Origin: a virus
Lineage: Duplodnaviria; Caudoviricetes
Strand: one strand, 5' to 3'
Virus record (IMG/VR): IMGVR_UViG_3300010260_000160
Location: 2,000-65,999 of that record
DNA: 64,000 bases
In this document: positions 26,876 through 37,986 of the stretch, piece by piece
Position numbering within the stretch: position 1 is the stretch's first letter
Layout of the letters: each line of letters opens with the position of its first letter
Program-made: the position numbers and the translations under genes
The notes under the pieces: model-generated
Seen by the model: the letters and a program-made list of their open reading frames with translations, nothing else
Database searches by the model: none
What the model was told of the DNA's origin: nothing

Positions 26876-27520
26876 ATGCTGTACTCTGTCAGTGAACTGA
26901 AAAAGGACATTCGTGTTGTCCTGGATCAGAATATGACCAGTGAGCAATTGTTCGAGACGGGCGACATTGACACGCTTTCATTGGAGGAAATCATAGAAAG
27001 CAAAATAGTCGATGCCGCCCGACTTGTTGAAACTAATGCACCTCTGTATTTGATTGATGGAGGAAAGCATTTCGATAGTAGCATAGATTGGGACAGTGCT
27101 CACGGATATGGTGGCGGAAGAATACTCCTTCCGGAAGATTTTATGCGTCTCGTTTCCTTTATGATGAGTGACTGGGACTACCCCGTAAGCGCGGCATTGA
27201 CCGAGGATGACCCGGAATACGCAATGCAGAGAAGTCGTTATCCCGGAATCAAAGGGAATCCGCAGAGGCCGGTAGTAGCAATAACCACACAGCCAGCCGG
27301 CCAAGTTCTGGAATTTTATTCCTGTACGGCAGGAGAATCAGTCTATGTCCGCAGAGCGCAGTACCTGCCTATGCCGGAAATCAAGGATGATATGATTGAT
27401 TTGTGTGTAAAACTGCGCCGCTCAATAGTCTATCGCGCAGCCAGTCTTGTTGCTACAGCAATAGGGCAGACAGATTTGGCTGCTGCATTGTTGAATACTT
27501 GTAATGAACTTATGTCATGA
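26876..27520 (+). CDS. Putative head-tail adaptor protein
   Basis: 214 aa; position in the structural operon; helical N- and C-termini flanking a beta-rich core (LPEDFMRLVSFMMSDW). Confidence 0.5.
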   Translation: MLYSVSELKKDIRVVLDQNMTSEQLFETGDIDTLSLEEIIESKIVDAARLVETNAPLYLIDGGKHFDSSIDWDSAHGYGGGRILLPEDFMRLVSFMMSDWDYPVSAALTEDDPEYAMQRSRYPGIKGNPQRPVVAITTQPAGQVLEFYSCTAGESVYVRRAQYLPMPEIKDDMIDLCVKLRRSIVYRAASLVATAIGQTDLAAALLNTCNELMS

Positions 27521-30500
27521 GTGATTTAAGAAATCTTGGATTATTCGCAACCGTGGATGCACTCTGGGCCGAACATCCGGAAGGAGGCCAAGAGGGAGAT
27601 TATGCATTCATAGGCGAATCGGAGCAGACCGCGACTAAGTATCGTTGGAACAAATACGAGAGGATTTGGGAAAATGCTGCCACAGTCACGGAGACTTCCG
27701 GAAAGAAAAGCGAAACTTTCGATGGCGATAAAACCATCAACGGAAATGTTTCCGTAGGTGGCAATGTAAAAGTCACTGGGGACACAAAACTCCAAGGCAA
27801 CGCCAGCGTCAGTGGTAATCTCAAAGTGGGAGGTGTGCTTGATGCGGCAAAAGTGAAGCAACCTTGCTGCGGCCTATTTGATACCTTGACTGCATTAAGA
27901 ACTGCATATCCAACCCCTGAGGATGGTTGGTGGGCAGTTGTCGGTAGCACAGTACCTGGACCGATATACAGAGCAAAAAACGGTGTATGGTCGGCAACTG
28001 GAGAAGAAGGTGGCGGTGCTGAACTTGATGTTACCCGTATCACCAATATTGAAGAAAAGAATGCCGAGCAGGACGAGAAAATTTCAGAGCTGCAAACGAG
28101 TGACACTCAAGCGACACGCGACAGAGACACCCTCTGGGAACATGTCAATAATATCGAGTACCTGCTGAACGGCGAGGAAGGCGAAAATGTGTCAGAAGCC
28201 ATTGAGAACTTCAAAGAGGTAGTTGAGTTCCTATCCGGAGTGAAGGATGATTCCACTCTAATCGCTTTGCTCGAAGCATTGAAAGCAATGGCTACCAATG
28301 GTTATTCCTTCAAAGGTGTAGCCAACCCCGAATCCCGCGACCTGATTACATTCACAGAGTTGAAGCCTTCACAGCCGGAAGCATATCTTGCACTTTCAGA
28401 AGGTGAATATTGGCAGTTTGGGTGGACTTCATCATTGACACCAGTAGATGTAGCTACAGATACACCAAGAGTGTTGCTTGGTGCAAATGAAGTCGCTTTT
28501 GTCCTTTACAACAATGGCTGGTCAGCAATCAAGATTGATTTGGCAAAGAAGACCTATGTAGATTCAAAGGTCAGCGAAATTGAAAAGAGGCTTGACAACA
28601 TCGGAGATGAGATTACTGCACTGAATGTTCCTGCTGCAATCTATAATCCAACTGTCGAGCACCCTTTGTCCGGTGGCGGCTATTACTCCTTGGAAGACAA
28701 CGAACACCCTTCACTGTCTGCCGTGCATGTAGCCAAAGCCAACGGCAAGGCCGTCAAGGGACTTATGATGTCCTTTGCAATCTCCGCTTCGGTATGGAAG
28801 ACATATCAGTTTGTCGGTTTGACAACAGAGGATGTGGACTGGTTCAATATTGACAACTGGAAGGACTTCGGTTCGCTGGCCGCAGGAAGCGAGAACTACA
28901 TCATCATAGATAATCTTTGTGGTGCTCCTTCTGTTGGCGACTTCTATAACCTGCAATCGGCAGTTGAGCGTCTTATTGCCTACCAGCAGACATCCGGAGT
29001 GACCTACGCAAAGCGAGGACTTATCATTTCGTATCTCGTGGCAGAGAACACGATGGAGACGAAGATGTTCAATGGAGCATTGGCTGACTTCTCTGAAGTT
29101 GGTTTATGGAAAGACTTTGGCGGCGGTGGCTCAAAAGTGGAGACCAAAGACGAGCCGCAGTCTGACGGCAAAGATGCGTTTTCGACCGGAGGTGCCTATA
29201 ACCTTCTGCCTACCGGAATCCGTGTAAACACAGAGGAGGAAGGCATTGTGAAACTCGCTCTGGTAAACGCAAACGGAGAGGACATAACAGATGAGGAACA
29301 ATTTTCAGTTGGGACCGGGACAGGTGGCGGAGGTGGCTCTGCTACCATAGTGAACATCAACTTCGAGGAATCCCCTCTGTACGGAAATGCAGGAGGAAAT
29401 TTCATCCTTCGAGCGTCAATCCGTTCTATTACTGTTGTCGGACTGGAAGAACAGGACAATACAATCAATACCATTGAATTGTATGACAGAGACACGAATA
29501 CTCTCTTGGAGAAAGTTATCGTGAATAAGGCTTCATCAGCAACAAGCCAGACCTATGACTTTGTGCTCGATGTCTCTAAATACTTCTCTAACGCCGGAGT
29601 TCGCAGGCTCAAACTCGTAGCGACAGACGACACGGACCATTCCGCATCACGAAATGTCAATGTGACAGCAGTGGATGTAACTATTTCAAGTGTTCAGACA
29701 CTTCAATATACATCATCCACGGCTCTTGTTGCTGGTGGTGCAGCTAAATCCATTCCACTGTATAAGTTCGCCAACAATGCATCAGATAAAGGAATCAATG
29801 CCATCACGGAAATATACATTGGCGGAGAATGGAAAGAACTCGGGCAAGCAATAATAACCGACACCTACTCTCACGGAGTTTCTATCAATCCTTCAAACTG
29901 CCTTGGCCAGACACTTTCACACGGTGCATATCCAATCCGAGTTCACGGTGTGGATGTAGCTTCCGGAGTTGTCGGAAACTATCTCTATTCCGGAATCTTT
30001 GTGATTGACGAGAATAGTGTCACTCCGCTTGTTGTAGAGAGCTGGATTAGCGAGACTGTGAATCCTGTCGTCAAACTCTATGATACGATAGAAGTGCAGT
30101 ATGCAGTCTATGCGCCTTCAAGCACATTCCCTACCGCACAGGTCTATCTGGACGGTGTTCAAGTGCAGTCTCATACAGCATACCGTTCTGTGTCATACAC
30201 ATATCGTCACCAGGTTACTGGAGTGGCATCTGATGGAACTGTGTCACAGATTGTCAAGGTTCGATGTGGCGAGACTTACGGGCCGGATGCGTCTTTCCTC
30301 GTTTCCGGTTCAGTAATCGATGCTGCGTTAAAGGACGGAGCAATCTACGCATTTGATTTCTCAAACAGAAGCAATGATGAGGAAGACCACACCATTGAGA
30401 GTGGAGGACAGAGCATCGTTCTGAACGGTTCCAACTGGTCAACAACCGGATTCAAGGAGTTTAACGGAGAAATGGCATTGCGCTTTGCAGAGGATGTAAC

Positions 30501-33500
30501 AGGCACTCTCAGCCATCGTCCATTCTCAAAGGCTACTGTTGAGACCAATGGCCTTGGTATTCAGTTCAAGTTCGCTTCAAAGAATCTCACGGATGATAAT
30601 GCAGTGCTGATGGAATGTCGTGATGCCAACAACGGTGCCGGATTCTATGTGACCGGTCGGGCTGTCGGAATCCAAGTCGGAACATCCAAGGAAGAACGCT
30701 TCTATAAACAGGGCGAAGACATCACCGTTGACATCGTTGTTGAACCTGCATTAGAAGGTTTGGGACAGACACGCAACGGTACGACTTACTACTTTATGAA
30801 GTTGTACCTCAACGGAGAGGAAGTCGCAGTACTCAGTTATATCCCAGGTCAGTCCAATCTTGTACAAAACAGTGACATCCGTTTCTATGGTACGGAAGGT
30901 GACTTTTATCTGTACTATTGCATTGCTTGGGAAGACTATTTCCTTTTCGACCAGGCATTCCAGAACTACCTCGTCAAACTGACGGACACCACGGCAATGG
31001 CGGAGGAGTATGATTTCGAGAATGTGATGGCATCTCAGGCCGTGACAGAACTCGGAATCCTTTCGACAAAGTTGCGTCCGCAGGCAGCAGCTCTGGCGGA
31101 ACGAGGACTACCATACATCATAGAATGTCCGTACAACGGTTCAGACATTGAGGCCCTTGACAACACAACAAGCACAAAGACCAACAACTATGTGATACTC
31201 TATTACATAGACCCGTTACGGCCTTGGACAAACTTTGTGGCTTATGATGTTCGCAGAAGGAATCAAGGAACCACATCAGCGAAACGCCCGGTAAAGAATC
31301 CTCGTTATTATTTTGCACAGAAGTATGGCTCCACCTACGACAAAGCCACCAAGACCGGCGGAACACGAATTGTCCTTCTTAACCCGGATAATACTACGGA
31401 GGAAGGACGCAGGGCAATCGCTCTGGCAGCAATCAACAAGGTGCAGATTAACGGCAGCTCAATCCCAGTGGACATCATTACAGTCAAAGTCGATTTCTCA
31501 GACAGCTCGAATGCAAATGACTGTGGCGTTTGTGATATGATGAATGCCACCTTCCGTGCCCTTGGCGGTCAGTATCTCACTCCGGCTCAAAGGGCATTTG
31601 ACGGAACTTGGAAAAAAGGAAGCATAGAGTTGGAAGGACTTGTGATGAACCATTCAACTGCAAACTTCCCTGTTGCAATGTACCGTTCAAAAAGTGAGTC
31701 TGGATCTGAACCGTACTTCCACGCAAAAGGTAACTGGAAAGAGGACAAGAAGGAACAGACTGCACTCGGTTTCATCAACACGCCGGGATATACACTCGGA
31801 TGTTTGAATTATGGTGAGTTTATAGAGTTCTATGGACAGAAAGGTGAAAGCCTTGCTGACGAAAAGGCTCGCTTCCTCTCAACATCAGGTCTTAATACCG
31901 GAGAAACATACATTCTGACACAGTATTGCGGTCCGTCTTACATCATAATGGAGTATAACGGCACTAACTGGGAGGAACAGACTGGCTCAATGGTGCAGAA
32001 CGCCAATGGCAAATGGACTGTGACCGGAAAGGTGCTCAATCCAACAGACGGTTTTGAACTCCTTAACTACCAGGGAATGGACTGGTTCAAGGGAGTTTCA
32101 TCAGTTGATGACCTTATGGCACCTTCCACCCAGTACTCTAAATGGGTGCAAACGCTCATAGATAATGGAGATATATCAATACAGAGTGCACCTGCGTGGA
32201 CTTACTATTTCGAGTGTCTCGTTGATGATGATGACCTTGCTATAGCATACGCCCTGGGAAAGAAGGTTCCTTATAATCTGCTTCGCTGGATGATGTTCTG
32301 CGATTCCTGCGATTATGACAAGTATGCCGGCACTGCTTTGTCCCGTTGGCGTACCGGATTGTGGAAATACGCATCTCCATATTCTTGTCTCGCATACGAT
32401 GTGTTCACAGACTATTCAGCGGCTGTTGACCAGAGAGCGAAGAATATGCAGCCGATGTGGTTCCTTGAGGATGGCTGTAAGATAGTCAACGGTGTAATCT
32501 ATAATCAGGATGGCGAGACTTACGAGGCCGCTACCGGGATGATGCCGATGAGGATGTATCTGAATAAGGTATATGACTGCGACACCTGTAACGGAAAGGA
32601 CAATGATGGAGGACAGACCATTGACGCGGAGGTGGACCCGAACAGAATGCCTGATGAGACATTCGTGAATCCGTATGCAGGATATAATTCAACATTGTTC
32701 AGGAACATCTTCTTGCAACCGGAGGTCATTGTAGATGCAGACGGAACTCTGCTTAATCTGCAAACAGTTGCTTCTGCAATGCGCTCCTGCACAGCCACCG
32801 TTGATGGAATCACTCTGCATCCGTTCTCTCCGGAAGGTGCAAAGCATTTCTTCATTGACCGCCGCATATCGCGCTGGCCAAAGAAAGTATCATCATACGA
32901 TGGAGAACGCAAGTACATTGATTTTACATCAACAACAGCCGACACACTTTATTTCTATGCTTTGCAGGGCCTTGGACTGACTTCGCTTCCTGCATTCATC
33001 GAAAGAAGGTACAGATACCGTGACGGATTCTTCGGTACCGGAGATTTCTTTTCCGGAGTTCTCGCCGGTCGTGTGAACGCTCCTGCAGGAGCAACAATCA
33101 AAATCAAGGCTGCAAAGTCAGGCTATTTCGGCATTGGTAATGATTCATCCGGCTCACTGTCAGAGAAAGTGTATCTGGAAGCCGGGCAGGAATACGCATT
33201 CACAAACTTCTCTCACGAGGAAGGTGCTCTGCTCTATATCTATCAGGCAGACCGTATGTCAATGATAGACCTTTCTCAAATTGCTCTTTCTGACAACTTC
33301 TCATTTGCAGTGATGACACTTGCGGAAAAGATTGTGCTCGGATATGAAGGCAAACAGGATTTGTCCATCCTGTCATACAACAAATTGACAAACCTGCAGC
33401 TTGGTGAACTGCCGTTCCTCAAGACGCTGGACATCAGAGGCACAATCATAACCAATGTAAATGCGGAGAACTGCCCTCGTCTGGAGTCCCTCTATGCCGC

Positions 33501-35586
33501 CTCATCACAGCTCACAAGAGCCGACATTGCAGATGGAGCGAAGATTTCGCTGATGCAGTTGCCGTCAACTTACAGTTATCTCAAATTGAGGTATCTGCCA
33601 AATATGACGATAGACGGCATCACGCTTTCCAATCCTGCATCCGTCCGCACGCTCATTGTTGAAAACAATGCGAAGATTGATAGCGCAGAACTGCTCAGGA
33701 TGATTGCCGGAGCAAGCGGAAGTGCACTCCGAATTGTCCGTTCTACTCCTGTTAATATCTCCGGAAACGGTGATGAGCTGGAAGTTTGGTGCGGTCTTGG
33801 AATGACCGGTTTGGATGCAAACCTTACTGCTCAGGACCATCCGGCCATTGTCGGAACATACCAACTGACAAAGTTCAAGACAGATGAACAGATTGCCACT
33901 TGGCAGGCTGCCTTACCTGAACTCACTATCAGCAATACTCCGTGCACGGTGGTTGAGTTTGATGATTCTGAAACGGACTGCAAGAATATATCCAATCTTG
34001 ACAATGAGACTGGATATAAGTTCGGTAATGACTATGCTCCATCCGGGCATATCACGGCAATCCTTGAAAAGCGTCACGCGGTTCTTGGGAAATTGCAGAC
34101 AGACAATGCAATGCTGGTCGCACAACTTGATGATGCCGACCGCACCAGATATGCTCTGGATGGAAGTCCAGCCAACTTGAAGGGAGACCGTGACGAATCA
34201 TTGGCAGATGAGGGTGATGTCTTTATGTTTGAGCCTCATTACTTCTACAAGGGTATCAATGACTACCTCAACAATAAGAAATATCACGCATTCAGTTCTC
34301 TTGCCGAAACGCCACAAGATCTAGGAAAGGATTCTGTCAAAGTAAATCTTTCAGAACTTGTTTGCTATGATGGACGCGGACTGTCCGTATCAGCAATGGA
34401 AGTCGGTGCAGTCGTGGAGGATGCACTTACCGTTTATTCGACATACAATGTATATAAGATAGATGTTGAAGGCGTGAAGGTCATCCGTTTCCCTGCCTGT
34501 GTATCCGGAACATACGGAGCTGCATTTGCTGATGAGGATGGAAACTGCGTTGGCGTTGTGCGACTCGGCTCTCTGAATGGATATGTCAATGGTGACTATC
34601 TTTTCAAAGAGGTGCCTTCCAGTGCAAAGACACTGTATTTCACAACCGTTCATGCTCTTGATGCAAACTGCTATGCTGATTATTGCGTAAAAGCATATTC
34701 AACTGACATCACTGCCGTTGAACCAGACTGGGTGGAGCATGATGAATGTCTTTGCGCTATCTATGAAGCAAACTGCGCCAATGACATTATGCGTTCCATC
34801 TCCGGTGTCGCTGCTACCAATAATATGAAGTGCGGACAATATACGGAGATGGCATCTGCAAGAAAGAGTGGTGCCGGATTTCAATGTGTAGATTATGAGA
34901 TGTCGAAAGATGTCGCCAATCTGTTCTATGCGAAGTATGGCACAAGGGATTCCCAGATGCAATGCGGCTACGGTTCGGGAACGACAGCGGCAATCGCAGG
35001 AAAGACAGATTTCCTTGGTATGAAGGATACAATCAATCCAAATGGCGAGGCCAATTATGGGTTCTACTACAATTCTGCTGGAACGCTCACTTCAATTCCT
35101 GCGGTCAATGTTATGGGCTACGAGAACTGGCAGGGAGATTCCGGAGAATGGATGGATACTCGCAGGGTAGGTCTTGCCAATGGAGCGAAAGTAACTGATT
35201 CGCTTGGTGCATCCCGTTCAACGAAGGTTGGTGTATGGCAAATCAAGATGAATGACGGCTCTACCCGTGAGGTGCAGGGACAGACAGCGACTTCCAACTA
35301 CATTTCAAAAGTTGTGAACGGCAGATTTATGGATGTCATTGCATCTTATGCCAACGCAACCAGCACATCTGGATATGCTGACTATCATTGGTATAGCGGT
35401 TCCAGCTCCCGTGTGGTGCTCCGGTCGAGCAGCGGCGCGAGCGCGGATGGCGGCGTTGCGTGTGCGGATGCGTTCTACGATTCGTCGGATGCGCACGCGT
35501 ACTATGGTTCCCGTCTTGCCTTCCGCGGCAAAATCCGCTGGGCAAAGAGTGTCGAAGAATATAAGGCGGCACCGATGGCGGCGTAG
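27517..35586 (+). CDS. Large tail/adhesin protein with a C-terminal C-type-lectin-fold domain; DGR target 1
   Basis: 2689 aa; N-terminal repeats, beta-sandwich/LamG-like regions, a CotH-kinase-like segment, an LRR-like stretch, and GYENWQGDSGEWMD...VVLRS...YGSRLAF at the C-terminus containing VR1. Confidence 0.85.
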   Translation: MSDLRNLGLFATVDALWAEHPEGGQEGDYAFIGESEQTATKYRWNKYERIWENAATVTETSGKKSETFDGDKTINGNVSVGGNVKVTGDTKLQGNASVSGNLKVGGVLDAAKVKQPCCGLFDTLTALRTAYPTPEDGWWAVVGSTVPGPIYRAKNGVWSATGEEGGGAELDVTRITNIEEKNAEQDEKISELQTSDTQATRDRDTLWEHVNNIEYLLNGEEGENVSEAIENFKEVVEFLSGVKDDSTLIALLEALKAMATNGYSFKGVANPESRDLITFTELKPSQPEAYLALSEGEYWQFGWTSSLTPVDVATDTPRVLLGANEVAFVLYNNGWSAIKIDLAKKTYVDSKVSEIEKRLDNIGDEITALNVPAAIYNPTVEHPLSGGGYYSLEDNEHPSLSAVHVAKANGKAVKGLMMSFAISASVWKTYQFVGLTTEDVDWFNIDNWKDFGSLAAGSENYIIIDNLCGAPSVGDFYNLQSAVERLIAYQQTSGVTYAKRGLIISYLVAENTMETKMFNGALADFSEVGLWKDFGGGGSKVETKDEPQSDGKDAFSTGGAYNLLPTGIRVNTEEEGIVKLALVNANGEDITDEEQFSVGTGTGGGGGSATIVNINFEESPLYGNAGGNFILRASIRSITVVGLEEQDNTINTIELYDRDTNTLLEKVIVNKASSATSQTYDFVLDVSKYFSNAGVRRLKLVATDDTDHSASRNVNVTAVDVTISSVQTLQYTSSTALVAGGAAKSIPLYKFANNASDKGINAITEIYIGGEWKELGQAIITDTYSHGVSINPSNCLGQTLSHGAYPIRVHGVDVASGVVGNYLYSGIFVIDENSVTPLVVESWISETVNPVVKLYDTIEVQYAVYAPSSTFPTAQVYLDGVQVQSHTAYRSVSYTYRHQVTGVASDGTVSQIVKVRCGETYGPDASFLVSGSVIDAALKDGAIYAFDFSNRSNDEEDHTIESGGQSIVLNGSNWSTTGFKEFNGEMALRFAEDVTGTLSHRPFSKATVETNGLGIQFKFASKNLTDDNAVLMECRDANNGAGFYVTGRAVGIQVGTSKEERFYKQGEDITVDIVVEPALEGLGQTRNGTTYYFMKLYLNGEEVAVLSYIPGQSNLVQNSDIRFYGTEGDFYLYYCIAWEDYFLFDQAFQNYLVKLTDTTAMAEEYDFENVMASQAVTELGILSTKLRPQAAALAERGLPYIIECPYNGSDIEALDNTTSTKTNNYVILYYIDPLRPWTNFVAYDVRRRNQGTTSAKRPVKNPRYYFAQKYGSTYDKATKTGGTRIVLLNPDNTTEEGRRAIALAAINKVQINGSSIPVDIITVKVDFSDSSNANDCGVCDMMNATFRALGGQYLTPAQRAFDGTWKKGSIELEGLVMNHSTANFPVAMYRSKSESGSEPYFHAKGNWKEDKKEQTALGFINTPGYTLGCLNYGEFIEFYGQKGESLADEKARFLSTSGLNTGETYILTQYCGPSYIIMEYNGTNWEEQTGSMVQNANGKWTVTGKVLNPTDGFELLNYQGMDWFKGVSSVDDLMAPSTQYSKWVQTLIDNGDISIQSAPAWTYYFECLVDDDDLAIAYALGKKVPYNLLRWMMFCDSCDYDKYAGTALSRWRTGLWKYASPYSCLAYDVFTDYSAAVDQRAKNMQPMWFLEDGCKIVNGVIYNQDGETYEAATGMMPMRMYLNKVYDCDTCNGKDNDGGQTIDAEVDPNRMPDETFVNPYAGYNSTLFRNIFLQPEVIVDADGTLLNLQTVASAMRSCTATVDGITLHPFSPEGAKHFFIDRRISRWPKKVSSYDGERKYIDFTSTTADTLYFYALQGLGLTSLPAFIERRYRYRDGFFGTGDFFSGVLAGRVNAPAGATIKIKAAKSGYFGIGNDSSGSLSEKVYLEAGQEYAFTNFSHEEGALLYIYQADRMSMIDLSQIALSDNFSFAVMTLAEKIVLGYEGKQDLSILSYNKLTNLQLGELPFLKTLDIRGTIITNVNAENCPRLESLYAASSQLTRADIADGAKISLMQLPSTYSYLKLRYLPNMTIDGITLSNPASVRTLIVENNAKIDSAELLRMIAGASGSALRIVRSTPVNISGNGDELEVWCGLGMTGLDANLTAQDHPAIVGTYQLTKFKTDEQIATWQAALPELTISNTPCTVVEFDDSETDCKNISNLDNETGYKFGNDYAPSGHITAILEKRHAVLGKLQTDNAMLVAQLDDADRTRYALDGSPANLKGDRDESLADEGDVFMFEPHYFYKGINDYLNNKKYHAFSSLAETPQDLGKDSVKVNLSELVCYDGRGLSVSAMEVGAVVEDALTVYSTYNVYKIDVEGVKVIRFPACVSGTYGAAFADEDGNCVGVVRLGSLNGYVNGDYLFKEVPSSAKTLYFTTVHALDANCYADYCVKAYSTDITAVEPDWVEHDECLCAIYEANCANDIMRSISGVAATNNMKCGQYTEMASARKSGAGFQCVDYEMSKDVANLFYAKYGTRDSQMQCGYGSGTTAAIAGKTDFLGMKDTINPNGEANYGFYYNSAGTLTSIPAVNVMGYENWQGDSGEWMDTRRVGLANGAKVTDSLGASRSTKVGVWQIKMNDGSTREVQGQTATSNYISKVVNGRFMDVIASYANATSTSGYADYHWYSGSSSRVVLRSSSGASADGGVACADAFYDSSDAHAYYGSRLAFRGKIRWAKSVEEYKAAPMAA
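35404..35523 (+). repeat. DGR variable repeat VR1
   Basis: Aligns without gaps to the TR. All 15 mismatches in the first 116 nt fall at TR adenines. Ends GCCTTC where the TR has GCAAAC. Confidence 0.97.
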
Positions 35587-35639: not shown

Positions 35640-36039
35640 CAAAAATTATAAAATGGTGGATTCTCCCAAGCTCCCGTGTGGTGCTCCGGTCGAACAACAA
35701 CGCGAACGCGAATGGCGGCGTTGCGTATGCGAATGCGAACAACGATTCGTCGAATGCGAACACGAACTATGGTTCCCGTCTTGCAAACAATGAGTAAGAG
35801 TAATAAATAAAAAGTGTTAGACGCTTTCGGGACATATCTTTGTCACAGAAGATAGTCTCTAATAGATGTGCCTATTGAATGGGAGGACGAGTTCCTCCGT
35901 ATCGATGCACAGGGAGATGAACCACGGCAACAGCGGCAGGATGCCGGAAAGCCGAAAAATATACCACGAGGTAGGGTTTAGTAGGGACCACAATGGTCAG
36001 CCGAACAAGCTGTGCCTCAAAAATTGAAGGCGTTAAAAA
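35640..36039 (+). ncRNA. Putative DGR RNA (TR plus downstream spacer); boundaries approximate
   Basis: Stretch with no recognisable protein gene, containing the TR and a 250-nt spacer with local hairpins (GGAGGA-CGAGT-TCCTCC, 35882-35898). DGR RNAs are known to include the TR and flanking spacer. Confidence 0.55.
35669..35788 (+). repeat. DGR template repeat (TR)
   Basis: AGCTCCCGTGTGGTGCTCCGGTCGAACAACAAC...AACTATGGTTCCCGTCTTGCAAAC; 11 AAY codons in the target frame; lies immediately upstream of the RT. Confidence 0.97.
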
Positions 36040-37470
36040 TTGAAACGGGTTGGTAAAAAAGACAACCTTATCGCTGAGATAGTCCGTGAAGAACATCTGA
36101 ACTATTCAATAGACCAGGTGCTCGACACGAAAGCGAAGCGTAAAAGCCTCGGAGGACGAAAGATTCTCCGAAACAGGGAACAAGTTGTCCAAAGGCTGAA
36201 AAAGGAAATATCCGAAGGAACATTTGAACTTCACGGATATAGCGAGAGAGATGTCAAGGACGGCCCCAAAACCCGTAAGGTGCAATGTACCTGCTTATAT
36301 GACCGCATAGGACTATATGCCATAATGGATATAGTTGAGGCCTATGTAAAAAAGAAGTACATCAACACCACTGCTGCCAGCATCAAGGGACGCGGAATGC
36401 ACTACCTCTTGAATGCGTTGAGAAAAAACATCCGCGAGGACCCGGAAGGAATGCAGTTCTTTTACAAGAATGACATCCGGAAGTTCTATGAAAGCATAAA
36501 TCAGGACATAATGATGAATGCCCTGCGGATGATATTCAAGGACAAAATCCTTCTGACTATGTTGGAAAGATTTGTCCGGATGATGCCGAATGGATTGTCC
36601 ATAGGCCTGCGGAGTTCGCAGGGATTTGGAAATATGCTGCTGTCAATCTACCTGGATCATAAACTGAAGGACCAGATGGGAGTGAAGCATTATTACAGAT
36701 ACTGCGATGATGGTGATGCCCACGCAAGTACGAAACGAGATTGTTGGAAGATTCGTGACGCACAGCATCAGTTTCTGGCCAAGGCGAAATTAGAAATAAA
36801 ACCTAATGAAGCCGTGAGCCCAATAACGGAAGGCGTGGACTTTCTGGGATATGTTATTTATCCGGAACACACAAGGCTCCGCAAGCGTAACAAACAGAAC
36901 GCTGCCAGAAAACTGCATAAGGTTAAAAGCCAGAAACGGCGTGTTGAGATTATCGGCTCACTGTATGGACAATGCAAGCATGCAAACTGTCGGAACTTAT
37001 TCAGAACCTTAACGGGAATGAGTATGGAAGAATATAAGAGACTGAAAGATTACAAATTCAAGCCGGAATATCCGGATGGAAAGAAACGATTTGTCGCAAG
37101 GGAAATAAACCTCTGCGACATAAGCCGTGAGGAAGTCCTTGTAATGGATTTCGAGACTGGCATCATTACGGCTCCACAGAAGAAAGACTATCAGAAGAAA
37201 GTGGATGCTGCCGCAAGACAGATGCAAAAATATCTTGATGATGGTCTTGCCATCCCGAAGAATTTCAAAGGTCCTGATGAGATTGAACTTCCCGAAGGCA
37301 AACACATCGTTCTCATACAGAGAAAGAACGGAGAGTTCCGAAAGTTCTACACCGGCGACAAGGAAAACTGGAGCATTCTTGAGCAGATGAGGAAAGCCGG
37401 ACTTCCTATTTGGGCCGGATTCAAGGAAGTGCCTACAAAGTTCGGTGTGCGTTATGTCTTCGACTGTTAA
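36040..37470 (+). CDS. DGR reverse transcriptase with a C-terminal extension (TTG start)
   Basis: GLSIGLRSSQGFGN (DGR-type SQ motif), YYRYCDD catalytic motif, GVDFLGY; about 150 extra residues after Met327. Confidence 0.95.
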   Translation: MKRVGKKDNLIAEIVREEHLNYSIDQVLDTKAKRKSLGGRKILRNREQVVQRLKKEISEGTFELHGYSERDVKDGPKTRKVQCTCLYDRIGLYAIMDIVEAYVKKKYINTTAASIKGRGMHYLLNALRKNIREDPEGMQFFYKNDIRKFYESINQDIMMNALRMIFKDKILLTMLERFVRMMPNGLSIGLRSSQGFGNMLLSIYLDHKLKDQMGVKHYYRYCDDGDAHASTKRDCWKIRDAQHQFLAKAKLEIKPNEAVSPITEGVDFLGYVIYPEHTRLRKRNKQNAARKLHKVKSQKRRVEIIGSLYGQCKHANCRNLFRTLTGMSMEEYKRLKDYKFKPEYPDGKKRFVAREINLCDISREEVLVMDFETGIITAPQKKDYQKKVDAAARQMQKYLDDGLAIPKNFKGPDEIELPEGKHIVLIQRKNGEFRKFYTGDKENWSILEQMRKAGLPIWAGFKEVPTKFGVRYVFDC

Positions 37471-37482
37471 ACACATAAGGAT

Positions 37483-37986
37483 ATGATTAGAGCGTCATCA
37501 GGAGCGGAGCCGAAATACCTCCGCATTGCCAACAAGCGTCTCGGGAAGTTCGCTGTGGCCTTTGATGTGAAAAGGGAAGACGATGGTAATTTCTCTTTTA
37601 TGGAGGAAACATTCGAACACCTTCCGTCAAAGGAAGACATTCGCCAAGTCATAAACGCATACTATAATGAGCAGACAGAAAAGGACATCATTACTGGCTT
37701 TGTTTATGATGGCATTCCTGTCTGGCTTTCAAGTGAGAATCAGTTCAATTTCAAAGCTGCCTTTGACCTTGCCATTCAGACATCAGGAAGTTCGCTTCCG
37801 GTAAAGTTCAAGTTCGGCACTGATTCGGAACCGGTGTACAAATCATTCAGCACTGTTGAGGAATTGAAGGATTTCTACACGAAGGCCATAGCCTATATTC
37901 AGAAATGTCTTGAAGACGGATGGCAGAAAAAGGATTCTGTCGATTATACAATTTATGTACTTTCTAAAGAGGAGGATTCGCTATGA
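37483..37986 (+). CDS. DUF4376-like protein, putative tail-fibre chaperone
   Basis: VWLSSENQFNFKAAFDLA...LPVKFKFG...IQKCLEDGWQKKD pattern; located next to the tail/DGR cassette. Confidence 0.55.
   Translation: MIRASSGAEPKYLRIANKRLGKFAVAFDVKREDDGNFSFMEETFEHLPSKEDIRQVINAYYNEQTEKDIITGFVYDGIPVWLSSENQFNFKAAFDLAIQTSGSSLPVKFKFGTDSEPVYKSFSTVEELKDFYTKAIAYIQKCLEDGWQKKDSVDYTIYVLSKEEDSL

Follow-up and report, generated by a model that had tools for sequence, protein, structure and literature searches.

How can a diversity-generating retroelement (DGR) work when it carries no gene for the accessory protein Avd? The question is raised by the DGR reverse transcriptase (RT) gene of a Bacteroidales prophage, which we analysed in a window of 64,000 nucleotides taken from the 66-kb provirus record IMGVR_UViG_3300010260_000160 of IMG/VR. 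In the model DGR of BPP-1, the RT (bRT) is without an extra RNA- or DNA-binding subdomain, and Avd, which binds the N-terminal extension of bRT, assists in positioning the template:primer duplex and takes hold of a stem-loop in the DGR RNA. avd is missing in 26% of DGRs (Wu et al. 2018, NAR 46:11), and how this roughly one quarter of the known DGRs works is a question that was posed in 2018. The same study reported that ~20% of DGR RTs are extended at the C-terminus by as many as ~150 aa in which no motif could be recognised, and that one DGR lineage is restricted to Bacteroides. Here we describe one large and ecologically prominent Avd-less class, made up of Hankyphage and its relatives and present in numerous genomes of Bacteroides, Phocaeicola, Prevotella and Parabacteroides, that always bears the same extra RT domain, and to which the RT of the window belongs.

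The first ~338 residues of the window RT form a complete DGR RT. The Pfam family RVT_1 (PF00078) matches residues 75–272 (E = 1.5e-8), while the reverse-transcriptase family phrog_1423 of PHROG matches residues 6–336 (E = 1.6e-77). The catalytic YCDD (residues 221–224) is invariant in alignment A3, and the DGR-specific motif 4 ([I/L]GxxxSQ) is present as SIGLRSSQ (residues 187–194), in which G189, L190, R191, S193 and Q194 are invariant in the same alignment. A full-length AlphaFold model, computed with 14 homologues as input and having a mean predicted local distance difference test score (pLDDT) of 81, superposes on Bordetella bRT (8ub7_A) with a TM-score of 0.85 normalised to bRT and a root-mean-square deviation of 3.0 over 335 columns (E = 7e-18). 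As this superposition spans the whole of the 328-aa bRT, residues 1 to ~338 constitute a complete DGR RT and the rest of the protein lies beyond it. A fold search places group II intron-type RTs next after bRT among the solved structures nearest to the RT core.

Beyond the thumb, where bRT ends, the window RT adds an alpha/beta domain on a flexible linker. The earlier note on this DNA, which let the extension begin at the ATG at 37018 (codon 327 of the RT ORF), had claimed an extra C-terminal domain past the core, and the structural models bear this out. Specifically, a linker (residues 339–355) is followed by a distinct domain (residues 356–476) that folds separately in both the full-length and the tail-only model, with a pLDDT of ~80–90. 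Both models, the tail-only one (pLDDT 82) and the full-length one, agree on the succession strand, long helix and loop, strand, strand, helix, strand, strand, with predicted strands at residues 366–375, 421–427, 433–438, 457–466 and 469–475 and a helix at residues 441–453. The first helix (residues 378–400 in the model) and its loop are absent from the tails of Hankyphage, BS-TP4 and BT-TP2. Since this insertion is missing in the relatives, the core order is b1-b2-b3-helix-b4-b5, which is the order of the oligonucleotide/oligosaccharide-binding (OB) fold.

The tail is conserved well beyond chance, its matches to relatives having E values of 1e-28 to 1e-100. When the tail by itself was searched exhaustively with HMMER against 1.8 billion representatives, 12 matches were returned, 11 of which are RTs (475–567 aa) or RT fragments matched at their C-terminus, and the remaining one an unrelated TPR protein. 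In addition, a word-indexed search over the length range of the fused protein yielded a dozen further RTs of 476–497 aa with tails 56–100% identical to that of the window. The window's own tail found no match in 50,697 phage records by megablast and tblastn, and as a query it retrieved no relative in GTDB genomes and a single one (L038) in IMG/VR; divergent family fragments (P0007 and P0006) were needed as queries to reach the RTs of Bacteroides phages. With such fragments, each tblastn match in the 50,697 phage records falls within a gene annotated as an RT in a Bacteroides phage.

The RT of Hankyphage p00 (BK010646.1, DAC76693.1, 434 aa) aligns with the window RT from its first to its last residue at 43% identity (E = 1e-125, residues 1–474), and the sole large difference between the two is a 38-residue gap in the tail. 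The BT-TP2 RT aligns in the same way. The BLASTP alignment of the BS-TP4 RT runs through DGKKRF and DFETG, and its tail aligns in alignment A5. The window RT is homologous over its full length, tail included, to the RTs of p00, BT-TP2, BX-TP1/2, BKO1-TP1/3 and BS-TP4, and the motifs DGKKxF, DFE and K..T that it shares with the Hankyphage-type RTs are conserved over 118 tails. The Hankyphage-type and window cassettes also share their order, a large target with a C-terminal variable repeat (VR), a template repeat (TR), the tailed RT and a DUF4376 gene, and their hosts are alike Bacteroidales. They differ in two respects: the 38-residue helical insertion between strands 1 and 2 is found only in the window's own subfamily (RTs of 475–497 aa), and the window backbone is a 66-kb provirus with a 2689-aa target and with holin and amidase genes downstream, whereas Hankyphage is a 43-kb Mu-like phage.

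The tail is in frame in essentially every RT of the Hankyphage-type clade, on at least three phage backbones. Judged from these alignments, it is the signature C-terminal domain of Hankyphage-type DGR RTs, to which the window subfamily adds the helical insertion. The enzyme type itself is not new, knowledge of the Hankyphage RT dating from 2018 and C-terminal extensions having been noted generically by Wu et al., but the tail domain lacks a Pfam family and any previous characterisation. The window contributes a subfamily that carries a helical insertion and resides on another phage backbone, which for this window alone is not new biology.

Structural comparisons of the tail hint at single-strand binders. 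The top BFVD matches of the tail are other phage RTs followed by phage single-stranded DNA-binding proteins (SSBs), and the language-model neighbours of both the window and the Hankyphage tails include Phi29_Phage_SSB clusters. OB-type binders of single-stranded nucleic acid (bacterial SSB, PriB, Rim1, PRD1 P12, phi29-type phage SSBs and PrgE) dominate every structural match list, and they share with the predicted tail the b1-b2-b3-helix-b4-b5 order and the variable loop that separates strands 1 and 2. In both models, five strands with a helix between strands 3 and 4 correspond to OB topology as predicted. We consider it probable that the tail, ~130 residues in length (~346–476), is an integral, clade-specific domain of the RTs of Bacteroidales phages, that it did not arise by fusion with an otherwise independent protein, and that it is OB-like and binds single-stranded nucleic acid in cis.

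Residues D370, E372, K435, T438 and L447 are at least 98% conserved among 118 distinct tails that are 27–98% identical to that of the window. DGKKxF is invariant in alignment A3 and present in 137 of the ~140 family sequences collected, a count to be read with the motif's use as an anchor for collecting family sequences. The presence of D370-x-E372, K435 and T438 among the most strongly conserved residues of the domain would also suit a small enzyme, a nuclease or another metal-dependent activity, all the more as C-terminal endonucleases occur in the RTs of other retroelements and a nicking activity has long been sought for DGR retrohoming. We regard such an enzyme as very unlikely, however, because a nuclease fold is absent from all fold searches of the tail, the minimal Hankyphage tail has just ~90 residues, and neither a nuclease nor an RNase H motif was found in the extensions of DGR RTs by Wu et al. 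(2018).

In the OB-like model, D370 and E372 of strand 1 and K435 and T438 of strand 3 would line the face that usually carries the ligand, and the helical insertion of the subfamily would occupy the variable loop between strands 1 and 2. The beta-barrel would bind single-stranded nucleic acid in cis, holding either the structured DGR RNA, composed of the TR and the conserved spacer between TR and RT, or the nascent cDNA on the enzyme. By analogy to BPP-1, the tethered tail would then supply the anchoring and positioning that are done there in trans by a separate Avd pentamer. Our results support the tail as a reasonable candidate for an accessory-like function. More tentatively, the tail may replace Avd in cis as an OB-type single-strand binder, so that the RT alone, perhaps with the DUF4376 protein, would assemble the mutagenic ribonucleoprotein of a distinct Avd-independent class. 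If true, a mechanistically distinct DGR class would have spread through gut Bacteroidales phages. The analysis offers a fold hypothesis, five near-invariant residues and a tractable relative with an active DGR, since the DGR of Hankyphage diversifies its VR in culture (PMC12135933), and the family is thus a clean, testable entry into Avd-independent mutagenic retrohoming.

The same predicted fold, closest to ssDNA binders, could serve a later step, in which the tail binds single-stranded target DNA or cDNA at the VR and acts at integration, like the DNA-binding D domain that group II intron RTs carry. The tail is placed after the thumb, as the D domain is, group II intron-type RTs are the nearest solved relatives of the RT core beyond bRT, and the route by which DGR cDNA gets to the VR is, according to PMC12135933, not known for any system. 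The likeness between tail and D domain nevertheless consists of the post-thumb position and a presumed role only; no match of the tail to the D domain was seen in sequence or structure. In addition, an integration role leaves Avd-free cDNA synthesis unexplained, and the fold evidence for it is as weak as that for an Avd-replacing single-strand binder. On balance, a role at integration seems unlikely.

The proposal that a single-strand-binding tail stands in for Avd depends on Avd being absent from these cassettes. No Avd-sized ORF lies between target and RT, where the 453-nt gap is occupied by the TR and a 255-nt spacer, and a search of all six frames of the whole 66-kb provirus with PF05635, the Avd family, returned nothing at E ≤ 1; the earlier note's description of a cassette without avd is supported. 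PF05635 was likewise undetected in p00 and BS-TP4, and Hankyphage, whose RT is of this type, has a DGR that is active in culture. The tail itself does not match the Avd/23S_rRNA_IVP profile in Pfam, and its predicted five strands and two helices are unlike the all-helical bundle of Avd. Compared with the BPP-1 bRT/Avd complex (PDB 8UB7), the window thus has an RT core that superposes on the whole of bRT, the same adenine-specific VR/TR pattern, and a conserved spacer after the TR where BPP-1 has a structured Sp RNA; in contrast, bRT ends at the thumb and needs a separate pentameric Avd of four-helix bundles, whereas no Avd was detected for the window and its RT is extended.

Several points weigh against an Avd-replacing, OB-type tail. 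The absence of Avd depends on a single Pfam model, PF05635, and the conservation of Avd is described as very poor; an Avd-like ORF is mentioned or drawn in two Hankyphage papers, which do not identify the ORF that is meant. The DUF4376 gene, always adjacent to the RT, could be the true accessory factor. Neither sequence nor profile comparison ties the tail to an SSB or OB family of Pfam or the PDB: a search of the PDB sequences with the tail profile gave a portal protein at E = 9 only, a chance match, and a Pfam search with eight tails gave no relevant family at E ≤ 10. Finally, the two residues most conserved within strand 1 are acidic, an unusual feature in a surface that binds a nucleic-acid backbone; they could make base-specific contacts, contact a protein partner or take part in catalysis. 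Separately, we considered the 64-aa and 80-aa ORFs near the Hankyphage RT as the Avd-like genes of the literature and rejected them, as neither has a counterpart in the window.

The earlier note had further stated that similar ~100-aa proteins occur as separate ORFs just after the RT in other Bacteroidota phage DGRs, and had proposed the tail as a protein that is or once was independent, a DGR accessory factor of ~100–150 aa here fused to the RT, which would amount to Rosetta-stone evidence. Short ORFs that match the tail are indeed plentiful: a profile search over the short length range gave 267 clusters of 59–284 aa, many of them exactly 108 or 110 aa and one seen on 592 contigs, and the 105-aa family phrog_19665 (PHROGs v4) was matched by 12 of 14 RTs of the family (best E = 7e-13). 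The earlier note probably referred to these. Moreover, a Met 14–17 residues ahead of DGKK is conserved in all subfamilies, so that internal initiation, yielding a free tail domain, would be possible.

Nevertheless, each of the short tail ORFs sampled proved to be a fragment of a fused RT. All eight places of P0002, P0004, P0006, P0032 and P0083, and three of the six places of P0001, are fragments at contig ends; they begin 26–145 nt from the contig end, and the frame ahead of them is open to that end and encodes the thumb. Elsewhere, the reading frame is interrupted within the RT, by an in-frame GGA>TGA change in the thumb in L001 and L004 (L001:5940-5946), by a TAG at the position of the invariant Arg290 in L022–L025 (3495–3497), which represent a widespread Hankyphage lineage, by one additional T within a run of T in motif 7 in L030–L035 (near 2318), seen in six samples, and by a frameshift in the RT core in L036 (near 1058). 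What looks like a frameshift in L002 is a scaffold gap of ten N, and in L026–L029 an intact fused ORF of 433 aa had been overlooked by the gene caller. All breaks lie inside the RT and none at the domain boundary.

An independent sample of 81 genomic loci, drawn from representative genomes and IMG/VR across Bacteroidales, gave the same picture, with 72 uninterrupted fused ORFs, five truncated at a contig end where the frame is still open, four interrupted and no stand-alone tail gene. As no genuine free-standing homologue was found and the breaks are all inside the RT, the Rosetta-stone argument is unsupported, and an independent accessory protein as the origin of the tail is highly improbable. 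The conserved Met before DGKK explains why gene callers emit ORFs of 108–156 aa from contigs that end within the RT. The family phrog_19665 and hundreds of short "hypothetical 108–156-aa proteins" are probably C-terminal fragments of DGR RT genes, which corrects a database artefact. In the window, the Met equivalent to the one found in every subfamily is Met329 (37024–37026).

Some further observations concern the integrity of these genes. Many natural copies of the Hankyphage-type RT are broken, the list including L077, L078, L107 and L117 besides those above and the lesions including other frameshifts, and the broken copies could reflect decay or on/off switching of the DGR. For the TGA of L001 and L004, aligned with a Gly codon, a variant genetic code was considered and rejected, as GGA stands at this place in sister contigs from the same phage and all the other genes read normally in table 11. 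Three otherwise intact full-length RTs from metagenome-assembled genomes of Prevotella/Bacteroidales (L062, L089 and L090) have YCDN in place of YCDD in motif 5; going by this substitution, they may have lost catalytic activity while their frames stay open. Independent metagenome contigs with the Hankyphage RT (L015–L020, position 1) start at the same nucleotide, 26 nt before the conserved Met and just ahead of the tail domain. This shared start suggests a branch in the assembly graph at which a strain-variable RT core gives way to a tail and downstream block that are conserved, so that the domain junction would be a mosaic boundary.

The features of the locus are collected in Table 1. The DGR context of the RT is genuine, every mismatch between VR and TR being at a TR adenine. 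The spacer between TR and RT is 97% identical in nucleotides to that of L001 and 90% to that of L038, far above the flanking coding sequence, while in the relative with the 97%-identical spacer the RT tail is just 58% identical in protein. High nucleotide identity of the spacer beside a diverging RT tail fits a constrained RNA, and by analogy to BPP-1, whose structured Sp RNA is the model for such a role (10.1101/2023.10.23.563531), the spacer probably forms the structured 3′ portion of the DGR RNA. A basic 53-aa ORF in the spacer was considered as a mini-Avd and rejected, because its frame is broken in L038 although the nucleotides are 90–97% conserved.

Table 1. Features of the DGR locus, in positions of the window
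Feature	Coordinates	Strand	Basis and remarks
DGR target gene, 2689-aa virion/tail protein with C-terminal VR	27517..35586	+	ORF list; VR within last 60 codons
VR	35404..35519	+	116-nt direct repeat, 87% identical to TR
TR	35669..35784	+	116-nt partner of VR
TR–RT spacer, 255 nt	35785..36039	+	Nucleotide conservation against relatives
DGR RT gene	36040..37470	+	TTG start, 476 codons and stop; ORF list, Pfam, PHROG, structure superposition
RT core, residues 1–338 (N-terminal extension, fingers, palm, thumb)	36040..37053	+	RVT_1, phrog_1423, bRT superposition
Flexible linker, residues 339–355, holding DGKKxF (346–351)	37054..37104	+	pLDDT < 50
C-terminal domain, residues 356–476, predicted OB-like barrel	37105..37467	+	Models, fold searches, conserved residues
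Helical insertion of 38 residues (~378–415) between strands 1 and 2	37171..37284	+	p00 alignment, alignment A5, model
Acidic 167-aa DUF4376 protein, pI 4.85	37483..37986	+	PF14301, phrog_19239; starts 13 nt after RT stop

Directly downstream of the RT is the DUF4376 gene, which the earlier note did not mention. Its protein matches PF14301 over residues 54–156 at 25.8 bits, a narrow margin above the cut-off of 25, and is 49% identical to the product of the ORF that abuts the Hankyphage RT. A DUF4376-like ORF follows the RT at a distance of 0–43 nt (median 3) in 79 of the 81 loci, on three phage backbones. The window gene fits the published description of CH1, an acidic flanking ORF of 160–169 aa with an isoelectric point (pI) of 4.7 that was proposed as an accessory gene and occurs only in DGRs without avd, HRDC or MSL (Wu et al. 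2018): it encodes 167 aa with a pI of 4.85 and lies next to an RT for which no Avd was detected. Furthermore, the coordinate 62543 in the name of the CH1 exemplar ABQC02000022.1_61713_62543 is the RT start of L051 (Phocaeicola plebeius DSM 17135), a locus with the same RT tail and a downstream DUF4376 ORF of 161 aa and pI 4.82 that is 46% identical to that of the window. From coordinates, size and pI, we tentatively identify the DUF4376 gene of the window as CH1. CH1-type DGRs resemble the window in lacking avd, HRDC and MSL, in having an acidic ORF of 160–169 aa beside the RT, and in their Bacteroides-type hosts; Wu et al. (2018) delimit the RT domain only and do not tie extensions to the CH1 class.

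The constant adjacency of this ORF to the RT, together with the published candidacy of CH1, would suit a DUF4376 protein that is the true accessory factor, with the tail as its docking site or as a regulatory or oligomerisation module, and a protein interface would be in keeping with the acidic and basic residues that are invariant in the tail. Yet DUF4376 is typical of tail-fibre chaperones, being the conserved C-terminal domain of Mu-type tail-fibre assembly (Tfa) chaperones, whose genes normally come right after the fibre gene. The DGR target of the window is a fibre-like virion protein, and an acidic DUF4376 protein is an unlikely RNA binder. Weighing both sides, we find it rather improbable that CH1 is the accessory factor and the tail its partner. 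Going by its domain, CH1 may be a tail-fibre chaperone instead of a DGR factor, and its linkage to the RT may only reflect the insertion of TR and RT between a fibre gene and the gene for its chaperone. In BS-TP4 (L012, 1410–2070), a related 64-kb phage, genes for a RelE toxin and an XRE regulator are annotated between the DGR target and the RT.

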